A DNA stretch of 64,000 nt from an uncultured Gemmatimonadales bacterium (GTDB lineage: Bacteria > Gemmatimonadota > Gemmatimonadetes > Gemmatimonadales > GWC2-71-9): NCBI GenBank assembly GCA_963711915.1, contig CAVQGA010000012.1:31841-95840 (forward strand), written 5' to 3'. Below, one piece after another: positions 5,116-64,000 of this stretch. The notes beneath the pieces are model-generated. The model was given only the letters and a program-made list of their open reading frames with translations, ran no database searches and was not told the origin of the DNA. The position numbers were made by a program, and so were the translations under genes. The first letter of the stretch is position 1. Each line of letters begins with the position of its first letter.

Positions 5116-5595
5116 GTGAGGTCCGAGCACGTTCTCCGCACGAGGCTCCGCGTCGACCGCGCTCGCCCCGAGGTCTTCGCTTTCTTCGGGGAGGCCGCGA
5201 ACCTCGAGGCGATCACGCCGCCCGAGCTCCGGTTCCGGACTCTGACGCCGCTCCCGATCGCGATGCGGGTGGGGGCAGTGATCGACTACGCGCTCCGGCT
5301 CCACGGTGTTCGGATCCGCTGGCGGACCCGGATCAGTGAGTGGTCGCCCCACGATGGGTTCGAGGACGAGCAGATTGCCGGACCCTACGCCGTGTGGATC
5401 CATACGCACCGCTTCCGCGACGTCGGACCGGATAAGACCGAGATCGAAGACGAGGTGCGTTATGCCTTGCCGTTCGCCCCCATGGGCGAGCTGGCCGGCG
5501 CGCTCGTGGCGTGGCAGCTTCGGCGGATCTTTCGCTACCGCGCGGCACGGGTTCGGGAGCTACTCTCGCCGGAATCGCCCGCGAGGGCCGGTTGA
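5116..5595 (+). CDS. SRPBCC (cyclase/dehydrase-like) family protein
   Basis: VRSEHVLRTRLRVDRARPEVFAFFGEAANLEAITPP...ISEWSPHDGFEDEQIAGPYAVWIHTHRF is typical of the SRPBCC fold. The GTG start at 5116 was chosen and is uncertain. Confidence 0.55.
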   Translation: MRSEHVLRTRLRVDRARPEVFAFFGEAANLEAITPPELRFRTLTPLPIAMRVGAVIDYALRLHGVRIRWRTRISEWSPHDGFEDEQIAGPYAVWIHTHRFRDVGPDKTEIEDEVRYALPFAPMGELAGALVAWQLRRIFRYRAARVRELLSPESPARAG

Positions 5596-9304: not shown

Positions 9305-9856
9305 ATGTCGGAATTTTCTGGTGCCGCCGCGACCGCCATCGCCGATGCCCGGTCCTATACCGCCGCCATCCTCGGTACCCTCGGCGAGCGCGATCCCATT
9401 GCGGTACTTCGCGCCACGCCGGGCGCCGTGCGCGAGGCGGTGGCCGGCGTTCCGGCGCCGCTCGTGTCGCTGCCCGAGCGGCCGGGGAAGTGGTCCATGC
9501 TCCAGGTGGCCCAGCACCTGGCCGACGCGGAGCTGGTCGGGGCGTTCCGCTATCGAATGATCCTCGCCCACGACCGTCCCAGCCTGCAGGGCTACGACCA
9601 GGATCGCTGGGCGGAGCGGCTCCGGTACGCCGAGGCCGATCTGGCCGGTGCGCTCGAGCAGTTCGGGGCGCTCCGCGCCGCCAACCTGCGATTGCTGGAT
9701 CGCACCACGCCCGCCGAGCGCGCGCGGGTCGGGGTCCATGCGGAGCGCGGCGAAGAGAGCATCGACCATCTGCTCCGGATGTACGCGGGCCACGATCTCG
9801 TGCACCTGCGGCAGCTCATGCGCATTCAGCGGGCGGTGGCTCCCGCCGGCACGTAG
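9305..9856 (+). CDS. DinB family protein
   Basis: WSMLQVAQHLADAELV...MYAGHDLVHLRQL shows a DinB-type His triad. Start ATG 9305 lies within ORF 9221..9856. Confidence 0.75.
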   Translation: MSEFSGAAATAIADARSYTAAILGTLGERDPIAVLRATPGAVREAVAGVPAPLVSLPERPGKWSMLQVAQHLADAELVGAFRYRMILAHDRPSLQGYDQDRWAERLRYAEADLAGALEQFGALRAANLRLLDRTTPAERARVGVHAERGEESIDHLLRMYAGHDLVHLRQLMRIQRAVAPAGT

Positions 9857-9868
9857 GTCGGCCGCACG

Positions 9869-10372
9869 ATGCACGGCCGCCGGGTGCTCTGGCTCGTCCC
9901 GCTCCTCCTCGCGCTGCACAACGCCGAGGAAGCCGTCTTCTTTCCCCGCTATCTGCCGTTCGTGCTCGCCCGGCTCCCTGCGGCCTGGCGGGCGGTCGCC
10001 GGCCCGGTTACTTCCGGCCAGGTGTGGCTCGCACTCGCGATCGTCACCGCCGGCGCGCTCGGTCTCGCGGTCTGGGCCCAGCGCCGGCCCGGGAGCGCCA
10101 CGGCGCTCTGGCTGCTGCTGCTGCTCCAGGCCACCGTCCTGCTCAACGTGCTGTGGCACATCGCTGCGGCCGTCGTGTTGTTCCGCGGCTATGCCCCCGG
10201 GCTGGTGACGGCCCTGCTGCTCAACCTGCCGTTCTCGCTCTATCTTCTGGCTCGCGCGGTCCGGGAGCGGTGGCTGAGCCGGGCCGCGCTCTGGTCGCTG
10301 GCGCCGGCGGCGCTCCTGGTGCACGGGCCCCTGTTGTCCGCGCTGCTGCTCGCCACCGAGCGGTGGCGATAG
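9869..10372 (+). CDS. HXXEE domain-containing membrane protein
   Basis: LHNAEEAVFF motif near the N-terminus, followed by hydrophobic helices. Confidence 0.65.
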   Translation: MHGRRVLWLVPLLLALHNAEEAVFFPRYLPFVLARLPAAWRAVAGPVTSGQVWLALAIVTAGALGLAVWAQRRPGSATALWLLLLLQATVLLNVLWHIAAAVVLFRGYAPGLVTALLLNLPFSLYLLARAVRERWLSRAALWSLAPAALLVHGPLLSALLLATERWR

Positions 10373-55860: not shown

Positions 55861-56892
55861 ATGTCGCGCACGTGTACCGTCCCATTGCTGCTGCTCGCGC
55901 TCGCGGGCCCCGCGGCCGCCGTCCAGACGGCGGGCCCGACCGCCTGGACCATCGCGAGCGGCGAGTACACCATCTACGGCCACACCGATTATCTGCCCGT
56001 GCTCACCCTGCTGCCGCGCGTCGTGTACGACACGGCGAGCCGGCTCGACAGCGCGCGCGTGGTCGACAGCGTCGGCCTGACTCGGGCGAGCGCCGCCGCC
56101 GGGCTCGCGGCCGGCCTCACCGGCTGGCCGGCCGGGTCCTACTGCGACGGCGTCGCCTCGGCCACGATGCAGACGCTCGAGCCGCGGCTGCTGCTGGCCA
56201 GGATCCAGCTCGCGGCTCGGTGCGGCGTCCGGCTGGTGCTGGTGGCGCCCCGGCGGCTGCTCACGACCAACGGCCAGCCCCAGGGCGTGTTCTCGGTGGA
56301 CAGTGCCAAGCGGCTCACCGACCGCTACGCGGCGGTGCTGCCGGCGGACACGATCCGGAAGTACCGCGCGACCATCCTCGGGATGAACCTGGCGGACGAC
56401 TACAACTGCACCACCTGCTGGGGCGGGCGGGTCATCACCCAGGCGCAGATCGCCGCGTGGGCGGCGTACGCGCGCACCCGGCTGCCCGGTCTCCCGCTCG
56501 GCGTCCGGAAGACGCCCGACTGGGTCGCGGCGTATCCCGCGCTCGCGCCGGTGCTCGACTACACCTGGGCGCAGTACGACACCGGCCGAGGCGATCCGCA
56601 GGCGTACTACGACGACGCGGCGCGGATCGCGTCGCGGCTCGGGCTGCGCGTGGTCATGGGGATCAACGTCGTCCACTGCTACGGCGCCGACTCGGCCACG
56701 TGCACCGCGGCCGATCTGGTCCGGCTCGGGACGCTGGCGGTGACCCATCCGGCGAGCTGCGCGTTCCTCAACTGGCAGTACGTGGAGGCGACGTGGCAGC
56801 AGCCGGACATCCGGGCGGCGTGGGACGGGTTGCTGGCGCGGGCGAAGGCGCGGCCGGCGCGGGAGTGCCGGCGGGGGGAGAGTGGGGCGTGA
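55861..56892 (+). CDS. secreted hypothetical protein
   Basis: ggagg RBS. Signal peptide MSRTCTVPLLLLALAGPAAA. Several Cys pairs. No family recognised. Confidence 0.5.
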   Translation: MSRTCTVPLLLLALAGPAAAVQTAGPTAWTIASGEYTIYGHTDYLPVLTLLPRVVYDTASRLDSARVVDSVGLTRASAAAGLAAGLTGWPAGSYCDGVASATMQTLEPRLLLARIQLAARCGVRLVLVAPRRLLTTNGQPQGVFSVDSAKRLTDRYAAVLPADTIRKYRATILGMNLADDYNCTTCWGGRVITQAQIAAWAAYARTRLPGLPLGVRKTPDWVAAYPALAPVLDYTWAQYDTGRGDPQAYYDDAARIASRLGLRVVMGINVVHCYGADSATCTAADLVRLGTLAVTHPASCAFLNWQYVEATWQQPDIRAAWDGLLARAKARPARECRRGESGA

Positions 56893-57187
56893 CTGGCGCC
56901 GCGGGCGCCGCGGGCGTGCCGGCGGGTGGGGAGCGGGGCCTGATGGTCCGCGGCCGCCGGCGAGGCCGATGCCGCGTGGCCTCGCGGTGGGCCGACCCTG
57001 GCCAGGCGTGCGGGCATGAGGTGATGCGGTGGGGCGGTCGTCCGTTGCGCTGTTGCCGGCGCAGCGAGCGTCGAGCCCTGGCGGCCAGGTCCCGCCGAGG
57101 CGGCGGCGCCGCAAGGCCACGGACCCTGGATCGCGGCACCGCCGCGACGCGAGGCCGACGATTGGTCTGTCTTCGATCTCTCTGCAT

Positions 57188-58264
57188 ATGAGGCCGTACC
57201 CGCGCGCGATTCGGACACGGGCCGCGCGCCGGGGGCTTTCGACCCCGACGTACGGGGAGGCAGCGTGCGGCGTGTCCTCCCAGATTCCGCCGGCTCCGCC
57301 GCCGGGCGCGCCCCGGCTCCTGAGCCGGCTGCGGTCGGCGCTCCATCTTCGGCACTACAGCATCAGGACCGTCCAGGCCTATACCGGGTGGGTGCGCCGG
57401 TTCATCCGGTTTCACGACCTTCGCCATCCCGCCGAGCTCGCCGAGCCGGAGGTCACGCGGTTTCTCTCGTGGCTGGCGGAGGACGGCCGCGTGAGCGCGG
57501 CGACCCAGACGCAGGCGGCGAGCGGGCTGGTCTTTCTCTATCGCGACGTGCTGGACCGGCCGCTGGGGCGGTTCGAGCACCTGATCCGGGCGAAGCAGCC
57601 GCGCCGGCTGCCGGTGGTGCTCACGCGCGCGGAGGTGTCGAGCGTGCTGGCCGAGCTCAGCGGGCCGCCCCGGCTCGTGTGCGGCCTGCTCTACGGCAGC
57701 GGCCTTCGCCTGCTGGAGGCGCTCCGGCTCCGGGTGAAGGACGTCGACTTCGGGCTGGGCGAGGTGGTGGTGCGGCGGGGCAAGGGGGAGAAGGACCGGG
57801 TGACCGTGCTGCCGCAGGTGGCGAAACCCGGTCTGATCGAACATCTCGCCCGGGTCCAGGCGCGGCACCGACGGGACCTGGCCAGTGGCGCGGGGCGCGT
57901 GCTCCTGCCCGGCGCGCTGGCCCGGAAGCTCCCCGGCGCGGACCGCGCGTGGCCGTGGCAGTGGGTCTTTCCGGCGACGCGGCTGAGCCTGCTCGACGGC
58001 GCGGAATGCCGGGGCCGGCACCATATGCACGAGTCGGTCGTCCAGCGCGCGATGCAGCAGGCGGTGCGGGCCGCCGGGCTCCCGAAGCGCGCCACCTGCC
58101 ACACGCTCAGGCACTCGTTCGCCACCCACCTGCTGGAGGACGGCTACGACATCCGGACGGTGCAGGAGCTGCTCGGGCACCGGGACGTGAGCACGACCAT
58201 GATCTACACGCACGTGCTCAACCGGGGCGGGCTGGCGGTGCGGAGCCCGGCGGATCGGCGGTGA
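57188..58264 (+). CDS. intI: integron integrase (tyrosine recombinase IntI)
   Basis: [24 protein letters not shown]-domain. Catalytic context [28 protein letters not shown] and [14 protein letters not shown]. IntI-specific insertion [20 protein letters not shown]...GRHHMHE. Start ATG 57188 is uncertain. Confidence 0.9.
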
Positions 58265-58648
58265 GGTGGGTGGAGGGGGTGACGCAGGTCGGTCACGGGG
58301 AGGGAATGTCGCGATTCGGGCCCTGCGTGTCGCAAACGAGGCCTGTCGGGGGGTGGGGCGGAGGGTGGAGATTACTGCGGGAGGGGTCTGAGTGGGTGCG
58401 GCGGTAGGGGAAGGGACACGGGTGGTGGCGGCGCGGGCGCGGCGGTGCTATGCGGTCGAACCATGTGAAGCGATATTAGGCTGCAGGGCTCGCAGCGCCA
58501 ATCTGACAGGTCGGCGAAGGACGCGTGTAAGTGGGTTGTCTGCTGGGAGGTGGGCGGTGCGAGGTGGGGGTCGCACTGACAGGGGTGGATTAGGCTGCGA
58601 GGGGGATGGGGTTGTGGGGGTGGGCATGCAATCGAATAAGGGTTAGGC
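58265..58648 (+). other. attI region (G-rich) ending in the GTTAGGC crossover core
   Basis: The core at 58642-58648 is followed 2 nt later by the first cassette ATG. ATTAGGCTGC direct repeats start at 58475 and 58589. A G4-type motif lies at 58601-58624. Confidence 0.55.
58503..58531 (+). promoter_or_regulatory. weak sigma-70-like promoter candidate facing the cassettes
   Basis: CTGACA-17 nt-TGTAAG. This is a match by eye only. Confidence 0.2.
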
Positions 58649-58650
58649 CG

Positions 58651-59130
58651 ATGCACCACCATATGCCCTGGACCGGAGATCTTCTGAAGAATCGACGACG
58701 TCGAACACGTATCCGCTGGGCTGAACGGATAGTTGCAAACTCATGTCGTTTATACCTGACACGACCGCGACAAGCTTACGATGCGGACGAATTGTTGGGC
58801 ATCGCCAAGTCTGTACTTCAGTTGAGCCTCGTATTCCTACTGGACGCCTGGCGGCTCGTCGGGCCGGGCCACCTTCGTGGGGTTTGGCCAGCTGAGGTTG
58901 ATCTCACGGCTGTAGAGGACGACGGATCCGTCGTTAGGGTCTGGGGCAAGGTCGCGTGGAGACGCACGGTCGGCGGAGTTGATCAAGATCGTATCGAAAG
59001 CTTCCGAATGGATTGGCGGCTACCGAGCCGATGCCACGCTACCGGAGACTTCCGAGTCCTGTACTTGTCCTCGGTGTTTCGGATCGCCGCACGGCCTAAC
59101 CCGCTAATGCAGCCGACAAACGCGGGTTAA
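58651..59130 (+). CDS. cassette 1: hypothetical protein (159 aa)
   Basis: The ATG lies 2 nt after the attI core. The ORF ends inside attC1. GC is visibly lower than in the backbone. No family recognised. Confidence 0.5.
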   Translation: MHHHMPWTGDLLKNRRRRTRIRWAERIVANSCRLYLTRPRQAYDADELLGIAKSVLQLSLVFLLDAWRLVGPGHLRGVWPAEVDLTAVEDDGSVVRVWGKVAWRRTVGGVDQDRIESFRMDWRLPSRCHATGDFRVLYLSSVFRIAARPNPLMQPTNAG

Positions 59131-59221
59131 TCATAGGCCCGCTCACATCCGGGCCTCCGCGCGGAGATAAGGACCATAGGTTTTCACAGGTCGTTTGCAG
59201 CTGATTAGCCATTCGTTAGGC
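59094..59221 (+). repeat. attC 1 (class A)
   Basis: GCCTAAC-CCGCTAATGCAGCCGACAAACGCGGG ... CGTTTGCAGCTGATTAGCCATTC-GTTAGGC. Confidence 0.85.
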
Positions 59222-59289
59222 AGACTCGCACGACCTGAGCCGTTGGACGACCACGACCCAGTCTAGTCCTCCGCGACAAGCACAGAAGC

Positions 59290-59454
59290 TCAAGCCTTGT
59301 GAGATGTCTTCGCAAAGAACGGGGTCAGGAGTTGCTCCACGTTCTTGCTCTTACACTTGGGGCAGCCTGGATGTTTGTCGCCATGTTCCGCGAGCGGCTC
59401 GACGCGATCAAACACATGGTGGCAGTCGCGACAACGATATTCGTAGGTAGGCAT
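59290..59454 (-). CDS. cassette 2 (reverse orientation): FmdB-type CxxC...CxxC zinc-ribbon protein (54 aa)
   Basis: MPTYEYRCRDCHHVFDRVEPLAEHGDKHPGCPKCKSKNVEQLL... has the MPxYEYxCxxC hallmark. It is below the ORF-track length cutoff. Confidence 0.75.
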   Translation of the reverse strand: MPTYEYRCRDCHHVFDRVEPLAEHGDKHPGCPKCKSKNVEQLLTPFFAKTSHKA

Positions 59455-59572
59455 TGGGCCCTCCACATCCGACTCCGAGCCAAGGGCTGGCTCCTGCTGG
59501 CCCGGTCGGGCGGCAACAGGTAAGGCCCAAGCTAGCCTGGTGGTCCGCTCGCGTCTATCGCGCCGGCTCGCT

Positions 59573-59700
59573 GCCTAACCCGCTAATGCAGCCGACAAAC
59601 GCGGGCGGCGCGACCCTCCTAGGCTGACGCCGTTCCCAGCGAGGCTGTGGACCATAAGGTTGTAAAGGGTCGTTTGCAGCTGATTAGCCAGTCGTTAGGC
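59573..59700 (+). repeat. attC 2 (class A)
   Basis: Same 33-nt 5' end as attC1, and 3' end CGTTTGCAGCTGATTAGCCAGTC-GTTAGGC. Confidence 0.85.
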
Positions 59701-59994
59701 AACTCTCGACCTTGGTCTCACAACGAGCTTCACATGGGTGCCTGCGTGGCCGAGCATGGCCACCAGGGTGTCCACGCTGAACCGGTCGATCTTGCCGCGG
59801 ACAAGATCACTGATGCGGGGCTGAGTAACCCCAAAAAGGGTGGCCGCCTTGGCTTGGGTAAGCCGGCGGGCCTTGATCACCTTGCTCAGCTCGATCATGA
59901 GGTCGGCGCGCAGCTTCAGGTTCTCGGACTCCTCAGTTGAGAACCCGAGGTCTTGAAACACATTCCCGGTGGAGCGGCGGATCTTGGTGGCCAT
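59695..59994 (-). CDS. higA: cassette 3 (reverse): HigA-like XRE-family HTH antitoxin
   Basis: LTQAKAATLFGVTQPRISDLVRGKIDRFSVDTLVAML. Its TAA stop is formed by the TTA of the attC2 R' core. Confidence 0.8.
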   Translation of the reverse strand: MATKIRRSTGNVFQDLGFSTEESENLKLRADLMIELSKVIKARRLTQAKAATLFGVTQPRISDLVRGKIDRFSVDTLVAMLGHAGTHVKLVVRPRSRVA

Positions 59995-60001
59995 GGTAAG
60001 C

Positions 60002-60336
60002 CTACTTTCTCCGGCGAGAGCGGATCACATCGGCCAAGCGCTTGGTAGCCAGCTTTAGGTCGGCTTGCCGAGTCTGGCGGGTGCGCTTCTCAAAGGCGTG
60101 GAGCACGTAAACAGCTTCCTCGTACTTCGCCACGTAGAAGACTCGGTGTTCCACGCCCGAGTGAATGCGGATTTCGGCCACTCCCGGCCCCACGGAGATG
60201 ATTGGCTTCCAGTCACCGGGGAGAAGCCCTTGTTGAAGGCGCCGCAGCTGATACCCGGCCTCGCGCCGGGCGGCCTCGGGGAAGGCTCTGAGATCCCGAA
60301 GGGAAGCCCGACCCAACGGAGCGGCTTGTCAGCCAT
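60002..60336 (-). pseudogene. higB: cassette 3 (reverse): HigB/Gp49-like (RelE/ParE superfamily) toxin with a 5' frameshift
   Basis: MADKPLRWVG (ATG 60336) is in one frame. SLRDLRAFPEAARREAGYQL...VYVLHAFEKRTRQT continues in the -1 frame (ORF 60002..60316 from TTG). The switch falls in the CCC/GGG run at 60307-60309. Confidence 0.7.
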
Positions 60337-60376
60337 AGGGCAGTATATAAGTAGGTATATATCGCGCGCAAGAGTT

Positions 60377-60516
60377 GCCTAACCCGCGCATGCAGCCGAC
60401 GGGCCGGAAGGGCGCGGGCCTCCGCTCGGCCACAGCGCGTCGTGAGTGCGCTGTGGAACGTAGGTTTGTGCGGGGGCCGGCTTGAGGGCCCGCAGCTGAT
60501 GCGCATGTCGTTAGGC
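60377..60516 (+). repeat. attC 3 (class B)
   Basis: GCCTAAC-CCGCGCATGCAGCCGACGGGCCGG ... CCCGCAGCTGATGCGCATGTC-GTTAGGC. Confidence 0.85.
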
Positions 60517-60539
60517 CGACAGCACCGGAGGAGGTCGCT

Positions 60540-61199
60540 ATGACCGGCGTTGCAGTCGCGCGGCCAAGGGCCCTAGCCGTCTGCGGGGCGGTAGCACCCA
60601 TCGTGTTCACCGTCGCGATGATTGCCGCAAGCCTCCAGCACCCCGCGTACAGTCATGCCAAGAACTTCATCAGCGAGCTGGGAGCTACTGGAGCTCCTGG
60701 TGCGACCGTTATGAACTTTGCCGGCTTTCTCCCTTACGGTATCCTGATGATGGCGTTTGCGGCGGCGGTCCACCGAGGAATCCGAGCGGATGCGGGAGGA
60801 TGGCTCGGCCCGAGCCTTCTCGCCCTCTACGGCCTCGCCTATGTGGGAGTAGCCATGGCACCTTGCGATCCGGGCTGCCAGGCGGCGACCCCATCCGTGC
60901 ATCATCGACTGCACTTGCTGATCGGGGATGTTGTCTTACTGACTGCTGTTCTCGCCCCATTCACGCTTTACGCGCGGATGTTGAGAGACCCGGCTTGGCG
61001 GTCGCTCGGCGTCGCGACACTGGTGTTGCCGGGTGCATCGTGGCTGATTCTGGAGTTGAGCGGGCTGGGAGTCTCCGGCGCTCTCCGGCAACGACTTTGG
61101 CTCCTGCTGCTATTTGTGTGGATAGAACTGGTGGCTATGCGCCTTCTCCGTGTGGGCGCTGAGCCCACCAGACAGCCGGCACCACACGCTGCCGCCTAA
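60540..61199 (+). CDS. cassette 4: DUF998-like polytopic membrane protein
   Basis: ggaggagg RBS. ...HPAYSHAKNFISELGA... is typical of DUF998. The TAA stop lies inside the R'' box of attC4. Confidence 0.65.
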   Translation: MTGVAVARPRALAVCGAVAPIVFTVAMIAASLQHPAYSHAKNFISELGATGAPGATVMNFAGFLPYGILMMAFAAAVHRGIRADAGGWLGPSLLALYGLAYVGVAMAPCDPGCQAATPSVHHRLHLLIGDVVLLTAVLAPFTLYARMLRDPAWRSLGVATLVLPGASWLILELSGLGVSGALRQRLWLLLLFVWIELVAMRLLRVGAEPTRQPAPHAAA

Positions 61200-61323
61200 C
61201 CCGCTAATGCAGCCGACAAACGCGGGCGGATCAACACGCCGCCCGCGTCCGACTCTCCCAGCGACGACAATGGACCGTAGGTTATCTCAGGTGGTTTGCA
61301 GCTGATTAGCATTTTCGTTAGGC
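61194..61323 (+). repeat. attC 4 (class A)
   Basis: GCCTAAC-CCGCTAATGCAGCCGACAAACGCGGG ... GGTTTGCAGCTGATTAGCATTTTC-GTTAGGC. Confidence 0.85.
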
Positions 61324-61378
61324 CGCAGCCATTGAGATCACGCTTGCGCCGGCACGGGCCGAGAGGCAGCTTCCAACT

Positions 61379-61606
61379 ATGACCAATCCGCATCTCGACG
61401 AGCTGCTGCGCCTGCCGCCTTCAGAGCGACTGCAAGCGATTGCCGAGCTGTGGGATAGCCTGGAAAGCCAGGCCGATCTCTTTCCGCTCTCAGATGAGGA
61501 GCGGGCGGAGCTGGACCGACGGGTCGCCGAGGATGAGGCCGATCTCCGACCTGGGGTGTCCTGGCCGGAGCTGCGCCGCCGCCTTGAAGGCGGGCAGGCA
61601 GGCTGA
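61379..61606 (+). CDS. cassette 5: putative addiction-module antitoxin component (TIGR02574-like)
   Basis: LLRLPPSERLQAIAELWDSLES...LSDEERAELDRR. Confidence 0.7.
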   Translation: MTNPHLDELLRLPPSERLQAIAELWDSLESQADLFPLSDEERAELDRRVAEDEADLRPGVSWPELRRRLEGGQAG

Positions 61607-61893
61607 CCCCGGTCATTCGGCCGGCCGCCGCTCGCGACATCACCGAGGCGGACGTCTGGTATCGAGAGCGGAATCCGGGCATCGCTGCCGCGTTTCGGGA
61701 CGCGCTCACCGCGAATCTCGCCATCATTGAACGCAGCCCAACCGCCTTTTCGGTGGTGCATGGGGACGTCCGGCGGTGCCTGCTCGGGCGCTTTCCCTAC
61801 GCGCTTTACTTTCGGCTGCTGCCCAGCGAACTCCGGGTGATTGCCTGCACCCATCTGCGGCGGCACGCCCGACGGTGGCAGCGACGGTGCTGA
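61603..61893 (+). CDS. parE: cassette 5: RelE/ParE-family toxin with no canonical start codon (CTG overlapping the antitoxin stop)
   Basis: (L)TPVIRPAAARDITEADVWYRERNPGIAAAFRDAL...RFPYALYFRLLPSELRVIACTHLRRH. The frame opens at 61588, and there is no ATG, GTG or TTG before 61753. The gene is absent from the ORF track. Confidence 0.65.
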   Translation: MTPVIRPAAARDITEADVWYRERNPGIAAAFRDALTANLAIIERSPTAFSVVHGDVRRCLLGRFPYALYFRLLPSELRVIACTHLRRHARRWQRRC

Positions 61894-61913
61894 GGGGTTC
61901 GCGCGGGGCTGCG

Positions 61914-62052
61914 GTCTAACCCGCGCATGCAGCCGACAGGCCGGAGGGGCGCGGGCTCCGCGCGGGCGCAGCGCTCCTCGAGCGCGCTGTGGAACATTGG
62001 TTGGTGCAGGCGCGGGCCTGAGGGCCTGCCGCTGATTTGCCTTTCGTTAGGC
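61914..62052 (+). repeat. attC 5 (class B)
   Basis: GTCTAAC-CCGCGCATGCAGCCGACAGGCCGG ... CTGCCGCTGATTTGCCTTTC-GTTAGGC. Confidence 0.85.
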
Positions 62053-62130
62053 GGTCCTGTGCTCGTGGAGTGATTGGTTCGGTGAGTCGGGGCTTCAGCG
62101 TCAAATCACATCCTAGTGGAGGGTGACACC

Positions 62131-62565
62131 ATGAATGCCAAGCGGCTCGTGGTTGGAACGCTCGTCGGCGGGGTCGTGCTGTACGTAGTGGGCTACGTCA
62201 TTTTCACTAGGGCCTTCGCGGCCTTCTATGCCGCCAACGCCGGCACGGCGACAGGCGTGGATCGAGGCGGCGAATTGTTCTGGGCGGTAGCGCTAGCGAA
62301 CCTGGCGTATGCCGCCCTCGTCACGTTCGCGATGGGGAATCGAGCTGACTCTTTGTCGATCGTCGAAGGCGCCACGATCGGAGCGATCGTGGGTTTTCTT
62401 CTGTGGGTTACTGCGGACTTCATCTTCTACGGCACCACAAACACCGCGAACTTGACGAGGACGGTCGTGGACCCTCTCCTCGAGATCGTGCACGGCGGCC
62501 TCGGCGGCGCCGCCATCGCGGCGGTGCTGAGGGGAATGCCTGCGTCGGCTCGTAGTCCCGCGTGA
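62131..62565 (+). CDS. cassette 6: hypothetical membrane protein (144 aa, about 4 helices)
   Basis: ggaggg RBS before ATG 62131. Hydrophobic segments LVVGTLVGGVVLYVVGYVIF, FWAVALANLAYAALVTFAM, GAIVGFLLWVTADFIFY and GGLGGAAIAAVL. No family recognised. Confidence 0.55.
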   Translation: MNAKRLVVGTLVGGVVLYVVGYVIFTRAFAAFYAANAGTATGVDRGGELFWAVALANLAYAALVTFAMGNRADSLSIVEGATIGAIVGFLLWVTADFIFYGTTNTANLTRTVVDPLLEIVHGGLGGAAIAAVLRGMPASARSPA

Positions 62566-62570
62566 CGGCC

Positions 62571-62710
62571 GCCTAACCCGCGCATGCAGCCGGCAGGCCG
62601 GTTGGTCGCCAGGCTCCATGCCGGCGGCACACTCCCAGCGCGCGCAGTGGAACGTAAGTTGGTGCGGGCGCCGGCTTGGGGGCCTGCAGCTGATTTGCAA
62701 TCCATTGCAC
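62571..62710 (+). repeat. attC 6 (class B) with a degenerate R' box
   Basis: GCCTAAC-CCGCGCATGCAGCCGGCAGGCCGG ... CTGCAGCTGATTTGCAATCC-ATTGCAC. Every other site has GTTAGGC in that position. Confidence 0.7.
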
Positions 62711-62724
62711 GCGTAGCTTTCATC

Positions 62725-63000
62725 ATGGCCTTCACCTTTGAGTGGGACGTTCGCAAAGCCGTCGGGAACGAACGGAAGCACGGGGTCGCCTTCGATGAGA
62801 CAGCCACTTGCCTTCGCTGATCCCTACGGACTAGTCGTTGACGACCCGCGGCACTCAGTCGGCGAGGTCCGCGTCGCCCTTCTCGGCCATGCCGAATCTG
62901 GTCGTCTCCTTGCGGTCATGTTCACCGAGCGCGGTGACCGCACATCAGCGCTCGGAAAGCGACTCGTCGCGAGCATCGCCAATATGAAGAAGCCCGCTAA
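62725..63000 (+). pseudogene. brnT: cassette 7: BrnT (DUF497) toxin interrupted by two frameshifts
   Basis: MAFTFEWDVRKAVGNERKHGVAFDETAT is in frame 1. AFADPYGLVVDDPRHSVGEVRVALLGHAESGRLLAVMFTERGDR is in frame +1. ISARKATRREHRQYEEAR-stop returns to frame 1. Confidence 0.75.
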
Positions 63001-63246
63001 GCGCTCGACCCGGGTTGGTTCCGACGACATCCTGAGGGAGTATGACTTCCGCAAGGTCGGCGGAACCCGTACGCGGCTCGGATGGCGGCTGGCAGTCACA
63101 TCATCGTCCTGGAGCCCGATGTGGCGGCGGTATTCCCAGATGCCGCGGCCGTCAACGGCGCGTTACGAGCACTCGCGGGCATCATCCGCGAACGCCGGTC
63201 AAAGGCGAGCCGCCCCCGCCGGAGATTCAGCCGCGGTAGCGTCTAA
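62984..63246 (+). pseudogene. brnA: cassette 7: BrnA-like antitoxin interrupted by one frameshift
   Basis: MKKPAKRSTRVGSDDILREYDFRKVGG, then in the -1 frame NPYAARMAAGSHIIVLEPDVAAVFPDAAAVNGALRALAGII... The TAA stop lies inside the R'' box of attC7. Confidence 0.7.
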
Positions 63247-63343
63247 CCCGCAATTGCAGCCGACAGGCCGGACGGTGCCGCGCTCCCCGGATTGGTGCGG
63301 GCGCGAAGATGATTGCCTGCAGCTGATTTGCAATCCGTTAGGC
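63241..63343 (+). repeat. attC 7 (class B, short)
   Basis: GTCTAAC-CCGCAATTGCAGCCGACAGGCCGG ... CTGCAGCTGATTTGCAATCC-GTTAGGC. Confidence 0.85.
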
Positions 63344-63358
63344 GGCTTGCATCCAGAT

Positions 63359-63601
63359 TTATTCGCTGGCCTCGAGGCGGCCGACATCAGCCCGGCGCCC
63401 ATGGACAATCGCGAGGACCTCGACGCGCTCCGTGCGCACACGGCAAATCACGCGGTAGGGACCTTCGAGGACTTCACGGAGGGCGGGATCGGCGCGCTCG
63501 GGTACGTGACGGCGGGCGCGGGCAAGGTCGTCTGCAACTGATTTGCCAGTCGTTAGTCCGCTGCGAATGGCACCCAGGCCCCGCTTGGCGCGCTCGCGCA
63601 T
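63359..63601 (-). pseudogene. cassette 8 (reverse): RelE/ParE-like toxin remnant without an antitoxin
   Basis: The C-terminal ...RRHVPERADPALREVLEGPYRVICRVRTERVEVLAIVHGRR is ParE-like. The central helices seem missing, and no upstream antitoxin ORF is present. Confidence 0.45.
63532..63557 (+). repeat. attC-like 3' half-site (L'/R' only)
   Basis: CTGCAACTGATTTGCCAGTC-GTTAGTC compared with the class-B CTGCAGCTGATTTGCAATCC-GTTAGGC. No RYYYAAC/L'' partner is evident upstream. Confidence 0.45.
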
Positions 63602-63695
63602 ATGCCCATTTCTTCTGACCTTGGCGTAAGTTGAGGGCGCATGTTGTGCCTCCGCCCACCCCTTGTCCGCCAGTGCCGCTGGCCTGGAGTCTCCT

Positions 63696-63899
63696 ATGTC
63701 CGTCGCCAAAATCACCGAAATCCAATCCTCCTCCTCCAAGAGCTTCGAGGACGCGATTCAAAAGGGCATTGCCCGAGCCGATAAGACCCTTCGCAACCTG
63801 AGTGGTGCGTGGATCAAGAGTCAGAAGGTCGTGATCGAGAAGGGGAAGATCACGGAATATCGGGTCCTGCTAAAGGTCACGTTCGTCTTGCAGGACTAG
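63696..63899 (+). CDS. cassette 9: dodecin-family protein
   Basis: MSVAKITEIQSSSSKSFEDAIQKGIARADKTLRNLSGAWIKSQKVVIEKGKITEYRVLLKVTFVLQD. ggag RBS. Confidence 0.8.
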   Translation: MSVAKITEIQSSSSKSFEDAIQKGIARADKTLRNLSGAWIKSQKVVIEKGKITEYRVLLKVTFVLQD

Positions 63900-63931
63900 C
63901 CCTAGCAGGTCGGCCTCTGCGCCGCGCACCA

Positions 63932-64000
63932 GCCTAAGCCGCGCATGCAGCCGACAGGCCGCACGGGCGCAGGACTCCGCTCGGGCGGCGCCCTCCGATG
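63932..64000 (+). repeat. attC 9 (class B), truncated by the window end
   Basis: GCCTAAG-CCGCGCATGCAGCCGACAGGCCGCACGGGCG... The R'' box has G instead of the final C. Confidence 0.7.

Follow-up and report, generated by a model that had tools for sequence, protein, structure and literature searches.

Integrons whose integrase gene is transcribed toward the attachment site attI were described from Treponema in 2013 (Wu 2013, PMC3607928). An 'inverted integron-integrase group' was later described and found to be paraphyletic (Cury 2016, PMC4889954); hence, integrons of this layout do not form one clade. In a 2026 permafrost study, the inverted arrangement is treated as one of the two layouts to be expected in the output of IntegronFinder (PMC13323075), and integrons have already been reported from Gemmatimonadota (PMC8618304). 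Here, an integron of this arrangement is described in a stretch of 64,000 nucleotides from contig CAVQGA010000012.1 (the window), in which an integrase gene, intI, is followed on its own strand by an array of gene cassettes separated by attC sites. Treponema denticola and others of the inverted group are reportedly also listed in a 2007 account by Boucher. With a probability of about 0.9, the locus is a sedentary integron of this known type, carried by a GC-rich diderm bacterium on a chromosome or megaplasmid.

As judged from its sequence, the product of the gene at 57188-58264 is an integron integrase and not a XerC or XerD recombinase. It scores 425.2 bits with the 'integron integrase' model TIGR02249 (curated cut-off 265), while the XerC, XerD and XerA models give 135-161 bits, the values for XerC (150) and XerD (135) lying far under cut-offs of about 330. 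A SAM-like N-terminal domain (Phage_int_SAM_4) and a catalytic domain (Phage_integrase) are recognised by Pfam, and the protein aligns end to end with VchIntIA (PDB 2a3v, E=1e-85), the catalytic residues R, K, HxxR, H and Y all being aligned. The insertion specific to IntI proteins is aligned with ALKEKYPNAPYEFRWHYLFP of VchIntIA, including W219, H240 and H241, which we take to be the residues that contact the extrahelical bases in the 2a3v structure. The first-pass annotation of this DNA had recognised an integron integrase by that insertion and had named a grouping with XerC/D as the finding that would overturn it; both the scores and the alignment decide for IntI. With respect to the start of the gene, three candidates are present: the open reading frame (ORF) is open from GTG 57029, the 358-aa version from ATG 57188 is the form recorded in other database entries, and GTG 57272 is preceded by GGGAGG and would give a product of about 330 aa.

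The repeats downstream of intI are real, strand-specific attC sites and they are confined to the array. The intact ones are imperfect palindromes of 103-140 nt, bounded by G(C/T)CTAAC and GTTAGGC, with arms that are strongly conserved among the sites of the window. The exact heptamer GTTAGGC is found seven times in 58001-64000 and not once in 1-58000, and GCCTAAC five times against none. The sites were scored with a covariance model, R1, which was built from 23 attC sites of eight other loci (attC-like hairpins beside IntI genes), none of them from the window; its training set included a Verrucomicrobial array of classical layout, entered as the reverse complement. In the structure of R1, 91% of the cells are paired, compared with 78% in shuffles and 25-38% with a slid partner, and 12 pairs change on both sides. 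Applied with filters off to all 64 kb, R1 recovers all six intact sites, each on the + strand, with 40-56 bits (E from 3.5e-8 to 3e-12); the maximum on the - strand is 13.7 bits, and the one hit outside the array (E=0.55) is at chance level. The minimum-energy fold of attC5 leaves its R boxes unpaired, and this site was missed by a detector combining regular expressions with folding and was recovered by R1. At least eight palindromes had been counted on first reading, which is a fair count, since six sites are intact, one is degenerate and one is truncated by the window end. It had also been pointed out that rejection by an attC covariance model, or repeats scattered genome-wide, would speak against attC sites; the independent model accepts six of them, on the + strand only, and the first 58 kb of the window hold none of the repeats.

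The orientation of the array follows from the strand of these sites. In a class 1 integron used as a control, the R1 hits lie upstream of intI1, on the strand that encodes the cassettes and divergent from that gene; thus, a '+' hit of R1 denotes the conventional top strand. The - strand of the window sites folds with a 7-bp R box and a 5x2 internal loop, and its extrahelical bases, opposite the AAC arm, are C at position 16 and T at position 23 from the 3' end, with a 6-bp stem between them. In the bottom strand of attCaadA7, the corresponding bases opposite the AAC arm are G16 and T23 at the same 6-bp spacing, G being usual at position 16 (PMC5027507). The - strand is the recombined bottom strand. 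Taken together, the + strand hits of R1, the geometry of the bulged bases and the orientation of the genes place the top strand on the intI strand and attI 3' of intI. That all sites read R'' to R' on the + strand, and that the array is co-oriented with intI, had been proposed in the first-pass annotation, and both statements hold, all intact attC sites lying on the + strand downstream of a + strand intI. C16 was also seen in relatives inspected by eye in either layout, one classical (L005) and one inverted (L018); since the combination of C16 and T23 is present in the classical Verrucomicrobial array too, the pattern belongs to the attC type and not to the inverted layout.

It could be argued that the array is that of a classical integron whose own intI and attI lie beyond the right window end, the intI seen here being a stray gene and the true top strand the - strand. 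The near-palindromic attC sites, with RYYYAAC and GTTRRRY cores that are the same on both strands, would lend themselves to such a view, as would the - strand genes in three of the nine cassettes and the array that is unfinished at the window end. However, at each of the intact sites the + strand outscores the - strand by 27-42 bits under R1, with the class 1 control setting the sense of the call; a lone GTTAGGC stands between intI and cassette 1 with no RYYYAAC partner upstream of it, as an attI junction should; and the layout is shared by relatives, including complete records with 10 kb on each side. This alternative is thus already contradicted, and hardly any weight is given to it.

The same GTTAGGC would mark the attI core of the inverted integron. 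Its coordinates as first annotated (58642-58648, 378 nt after the intI stop, with an ATG 2 nt later at 58651) were verified, and in relatives a single GTTAGGC lies 85-270 nt past the intI stop, in an analogous position. By homology, IntI would bind the folded bottom (-) strand of the attC hairpins; excision would proceed by attC x attC recombination, and insertion by recombination of an attC into the double-stranded attI core, G/TTAGGC at 58642. This chemistry and the extent of attI are what we infer from homology and from the position of the core.

The distribution of the layout was studied in 80 IntI loci from a genome collection, with 52-65% identity to the window protein and mostly from soil metagenome-assembled genomes. 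R1 found attC sites downstream of intI and on its strand (inverted) at 29 loci and upstream on the opposite strand (classical) at seven, a ratio that is biased because R1 was built mainly from co-oriented arrays. Many further contigs end only a few hundred bases away on the side where the array would be expected; some of the inverted-layout relatives are complete records that cover 10 kb to either side. In a tree of 82 IntIs, calculated by neighbour joining without support values and without Treponema, the window protein falls among Gemmatimonadales IntIs, all of which are inverted, and the IntIs of classical layout cluster with those of Verrucomicrobia, Burkholderiales, Rhodocyclales, Bacteroidota and some cyanobacteria, as far as this rough tree goes. 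The nearest relatives of the protein span Gemmatimonadota, Acidobacteriota, Planctomycetota, Eisenbacteria and Coriobacteriia, and the attC type of the window is also found at a Gemmatimonadales locus (L023). Clearly, the inverted layout is not rare among the relatives of this IntI and is the usual one there. The arrangement had first been presented as the inverted layout of a minority; it is indeed a published type, but its significance was overstated in view of the 29 inverted against seven classical loci and of a further example in Gemmatirosa.

A few of the relatives deserve separate mention. Four loci in bins of Coriobacteriia, a group of Actinomycetota (L014, L016, L052 and L069), carry an IntI gene with a downstream attC array on the same strand; binning errors are possible. 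To our knowledge, published surveys have found integrons to be nearly absent from Actinomycetota. At a Blastocatellia locus (L063), attC hits lie on the + strand at 615-2893 and 9717 and on the - strand at 5361 and 8314, and at another locus (L039) + strand hits lie both upstream and downstream of intI, which suggests rearranged or multiple arrays.

That the cassettes move as discrete units in the population is shown by a sister contig from another sample (L088; ENA ERZ25039564 contig_51682) and by identical cassette proteins in other arrays. L088 is 99.0% identical to the window over 59092-64000 and extends the array by a further 2.4 kb, with at least two more attC sites; attC sites of L088 are located at 9382-9522 and 10056-10154. 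The total is therefore at least 11 cassettes, at least nine in the window, where the array is unfinished, and at least two beyond it. Between cassettes 1 and 2, L088 holds one additional cassette that is inserted exactly at G/TTAGGC. An identical 54-aa zinc-ribbon protein (cassette 2) was found in 50 blocks of the collection and an identical 67-aa dodecin (cassette 9) in 120, with different cassette arrays or neighbours in every place shown. The DNA homology of the zinc-ribbon cassette to eight other arrays (84-92%) ends at 59700 or 59701, which is the boundary of attC2. Logan contigs of 2.6 kb and 1.6 kb match the window at 99.9-100%.

L088 differs from the window in two further respects. An insertion sequence of about 2.1 kb (approximately 1925-4010 of L088), which has no counterpart in the window, splits attC1 within the L' box. 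Its terminal inverted repeats are 20 nt long, the duplicated target measures 8 bp (CTGATTAG), and its transposase, which is fragmented, matches the IS1595 family (PF12762) only weakly. The intI of L088 (1-990, corresponding to 57281-58264) is only 85.7% identical overall, the flanks being 94-96% and the spacer and array 98-100% identical. The divergence is confined to 57581-58080, where identity over the central 500 nt is 71-83%; the substitutions are without third-position bias (31/41/58), and 12 indels, three reading frames and a contig end are involved. An exchange of the array block between diverged integrases was considered and dropped because the difference in intI is local, lacks third-position bias and includes indels. 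The divergence may reflect an allelic mosaic, a pseudogene or an assembly artefact.

The features of the locus are collected in Table 1.

Table 1 Features of the integron at the right end of the window (positions are those of the window)
Feature	Position	Strand	Description
intI, integron integrase	57188..58264	+	358 aa from ATG 57188; TIGR02249, Pfam, PDB 2a3v alignment
intI-attI spacer	58265..58641	+	377 nt; 50% G, 17% C; repeats, G-quadruplex motif
attI-like core GTTAGGC	58642..58648	+	378 nt past intI stop; inferred crossover G58642/T58643
Cassette 1	58643..59215	+	ORF 58651-59130, 159 aa, no family match; attC1
Cassette 2	59216..59694	-	Zn_ribbon_8 protein 59290-59454, 54 aa; Pfam E=2e-14; attC2
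Cassette 3	59695..60510	-	Gp49/HigB-like toxin 60002-60316, HTH_37 antitoxin 59695-59994; Pfam E=7e-22, 4e-23; attC3
Cassette 4	60511..61317	+	DUF998 membrane protein 60540-61199; Pfam E=3e-24; attC4
Cassette 5	61318..62046	+	Unstab_antitox antitoxin 61379-61606, ParE-like toxin ~61603-61893; Pfam; attC5
Cassette 6	62047..62704	+	144-aa membrane protein 62131-62565; attC6
Cassette 7	62705..63337	+	BrnT-like toxin from 62725, BrnA-like ORF 63082-63246; attC7
Cassette 8 remnant	63338..63552	-	214 nt; C-terminal half of ParE toxin ~63362-63532, half an attC
Cassette 9	63553..64000	+	Dodecin 63696-63899 (PF07311, 67 aa); attC9
attC1	59094-59221	+	128 nt, intact
attC2	59573-59700	+	128 nt, intact
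attC3	60377-60516	+	140 nt, intact
attC4	61194-61323	+	130 nt, intact
attC5	61914-62052	+	139 nt, intact; 40 bits
attC6	62571-62710	+	R' degenerate (ATTGCAC, 62704-62710); R1 16 bits, E=0.057
attC7	63241-63343	+	103 nt, intact
Orphan attC 3' half	GTTAGTC end at 63552-63558	+	Alignment
attC9	from 63932 (GCCTAAG)	+	Cut by window end; complete 141 nt in L088

The cassettes measure 0.21-0.82 kb, in agreement with the units of 0.2-0.8 kb reported at first, and six of the nine carry their genes on the + strand. In these, the gene starts 8-85 nt past the cassette junction, or 84-143 nt in cassettes 6 and 9. Stop codons inside R'' boxes had been noted at 61197 and 63244 and were located at 61197-61199 and 63244-63246; a third stop in a box, on the - strand at 59695-59697, lies inside R' of attC2. 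The ORF of cassette 2 is open from GTG 59466, which would lengthen the protein to 58 aa. In cassette 5, the frame of the ParE-like toxin lacks an ATG, GTG or TTG before the codon at 61753, and a CTG overlaps the stop of the antitoxin gene (GGCTGACC); a rare start, translational coupling or inactivation is to be considered. Cassettes 6 and 7 are probably fused, because R' of attC6 is degenerate. The BrnT-like gene of cassette 7 (62725-63010) is frameshifted near 62810, likewise in L088, and BrnT_toxin is recorded on the L088 homologue. The Pfam ParE_toxin match of cassette 8 covers profile positions 41-88 only. In all, three toxin-antitoxin modules and one remnant are present, and the array is free of resistance genes. 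The first observation of lower-GC cassettes in a GC-rich backbone was confirmed, with values of 63-65% for the array and 70-76% for the backbone. Toxin-antitoxin modules, unknown small proteins and decayed cassettes together give the look of sedentary integrons, in which the toxin-antitoxin cassettes would probably stabilise the array.

The spacer between intI and attI stands out by its composition. Its GC skew is +0.49 versus a background mean of -0.004 (sd 0.078, maximum 0.277), and it holds 25 G-runs of at least three; at 58601-58624, 18 nt short of the core, lies a G-quadruplex motif of canonical form. The spacer is 98.4% conserved in L088, and its G-richness is missing from the spacers of other relatives. 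The spacer also has two exact direct repeats, ATTAGGCTGC, at 58475-58484 and 58589-58598, at distances of 167 and 53 nt before the core. In sequence they are similar to the core half-site, and several relatives have ATTAGGC upstream of their core; by analogy with DR1 and DR2 of attI1, the repeats could be accessory IntI-binding sites. An Rfam search of the array region and of the whole window, spacer included, gave no match, and neither rRNA nor tRNA genes were found in the window.

No intrinsic terminator was found between intI and attI; hence, read-through is possible. Any promoter serving the cassettes would lie in 58265-58641 or upstream of intI, and transcription of the + strand cassettes probably continues from the intI promoter, starts at an unrecognised promoter in the spacer, or does both. 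Read-through from intI and a promoter inside attI had been put forward in the first-pass annotation as possible sources of cassette expression. The cassettes in reverse orientation (the zinc-ribbon gene and the toxin-antitoxin pair) would have to bring promoters of their own. A more speculative proposal, to which a low likelihood is assigned, is that the spacer is a lineage-specific functional module that couples the expression of integrase and cassettes in a manner that only the inverted layout allows. Transcripts of intI would run on into the cassettes, their G-rich, C-poor RNA being a poor substrate for Rho, and antisense transcripts of the reverse cassettes would be stopped, their RNA being C-rich. 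Alternatively, such a module might modulate recombination at attI.

The backbone of the window includes an RND efflux system with an outer-membrane factor as well as metabolic and transport genes. The outer-membrane factor of the efflux system marks the host as a diderm, and on sequence grounds it probably belongs to Gemmatimonadota. A mobile integron, residing on a transposon or plasmid and not sedentary, might be suspected because the IntI is 54% identical to IntI1, because the cassettes are widely common to other arrays and because the homologue in Gemmatirosa is on a replicon annotated as a plasmid. However, a scan of ORFs over the 57 kb upstream gave no gene for a transposase or resolvase, no tni gene and none for conjugation or replication, and the GC content of intI is like that of the backbone. 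The class 1-type equivalog model NF011946 gives 338 bits, under its cut-off of 435; together with the 54% identity to IntI1 and with no transposition genes found nearby, this speaks against a mobile integron of classes 1-5. At least 11 cassettes with several toxin-antitoxin modules are typical of sedentary integrons. A mobile element of this kind is accordingly regarded as very unlikely.

Several observations weigh against the overall reading of a sedentary, inverted integron in a GC-rich diderm host. Base 16 is C in every attC of the window, G being usual at this position (PMC5027507). A search of 56700-59300 and of the array for promoters of the sigma-70 consensus, which may not be that of the host, gave none. 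The probable placement in Gemmatimonadota is drawn from the tree of IntI proteins, from the type of attC and from the GC content. The homologous integron of Gemmatirosa is on a 1.1-Mb plasmid, and the replicon of the window may be a chromosome or a megaplasmid. Finally, the array shows decay in the degenerate R' of attC6, the frameshifted BrnT gene and the ParE remnant, and part of it is therefore a fossil.

The last point can be carried further, to an integron that is a fossil as a whole, with an integrase that is intact in sequence and inactive, and with a decaying array that is held in place by its toxin-antitoxin cassettes. Besides the decayed cassettes, with R' at 62704-62710 and the half attC that accompanies the ParE remnant, the ParE gene without a standard start and the failure to recognise a promoter would fit this description. 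Against this, the intI ORF is intact with all catalytic residues kept, six intact attC sites score well, and the array differs by a cassette-precise insertion or deletion from that of L088, to which it is otherwise 99% identical. A wholly inactive integron is therefore considered improbable, if somewhat less so than the other alternatives, and an integron of the inverted type whose array is decayed in part is preferred.

The locus adds a well-resolved, co-oriented integron from a GC-rich lineage of soil bacteria; what is new is the example, not the kind of system, and the understanding of integron function is left unchanged. The older literature, centred on Treponema, makes the layout look more of a curiosity than it is. 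A clean locus such as this one would be a reasonable test case for the expression of cassettes that follow a co-oriented intI.

Among named systems, the superintegron of Vibrio cholerae resembles the locus in being sedentary, in the length (about 130 nt) and fair homogeneity of its attC sites and in its many toxin-antitoxin cassettes; it differs in its classical divergent layout and its much larger array. The VCR sites have three extrahelical bases (G16, T20 and T24), and the Vibrio intI is regulated by LexA and CRP. Unlike for this LexA-regulated gene, no LexA-box-like motif was found upstream of the window intI on searching for CTGT-N8-ACAG, GAAC-N4-GTTC and related motifs. Class 1 integrons share the recombination machinery and, in attCaadA7, the site geometry with extrahelical bases 16 and 23 at a 6-bp spacing. 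In class 1 integrons, Pc lies inside intI1, and these elements are found on Tn402-type transposons and plasmids with short arrays of resistance genes. They differ from the window in the classical layout, intI1 being divergent from the cassettes, and in their attC sites, where base 16 is G instead of C and the arm-side spacer is 6 instead of 8 nt; the window is also without resistance genes.

The Treponema-type inverted group is alike in that the array lies 3' of intI, is sedentary and holds cassettes mostly of unknown function; the difference lies in the host of the window, which is of a GC-rich diderm lineage from soil. The closest cultured relative found is plasmid 1 of Gemmatirosa kalamazoonensis KBS708 (NZ_CP007129.1, about 846.8-867.7 kb). 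Its IntI, 62.7% identical over 84% of the query, is the best hit among annotated plasmids and groups with the window protein in the tree. The attC sites of Gemmatirosa are mostly shorter (about 95 nt, compared with 103-140 nt in the window), and its 1.1-Mb replicon is annotated as a plasmid; the two integrons have in common the inverted layout, the 18 attC sites of Gemmatirosa following intI on its own strand, and a high-GC background, which in Gemmatirosa is that of a Gemmatimonadota genome.

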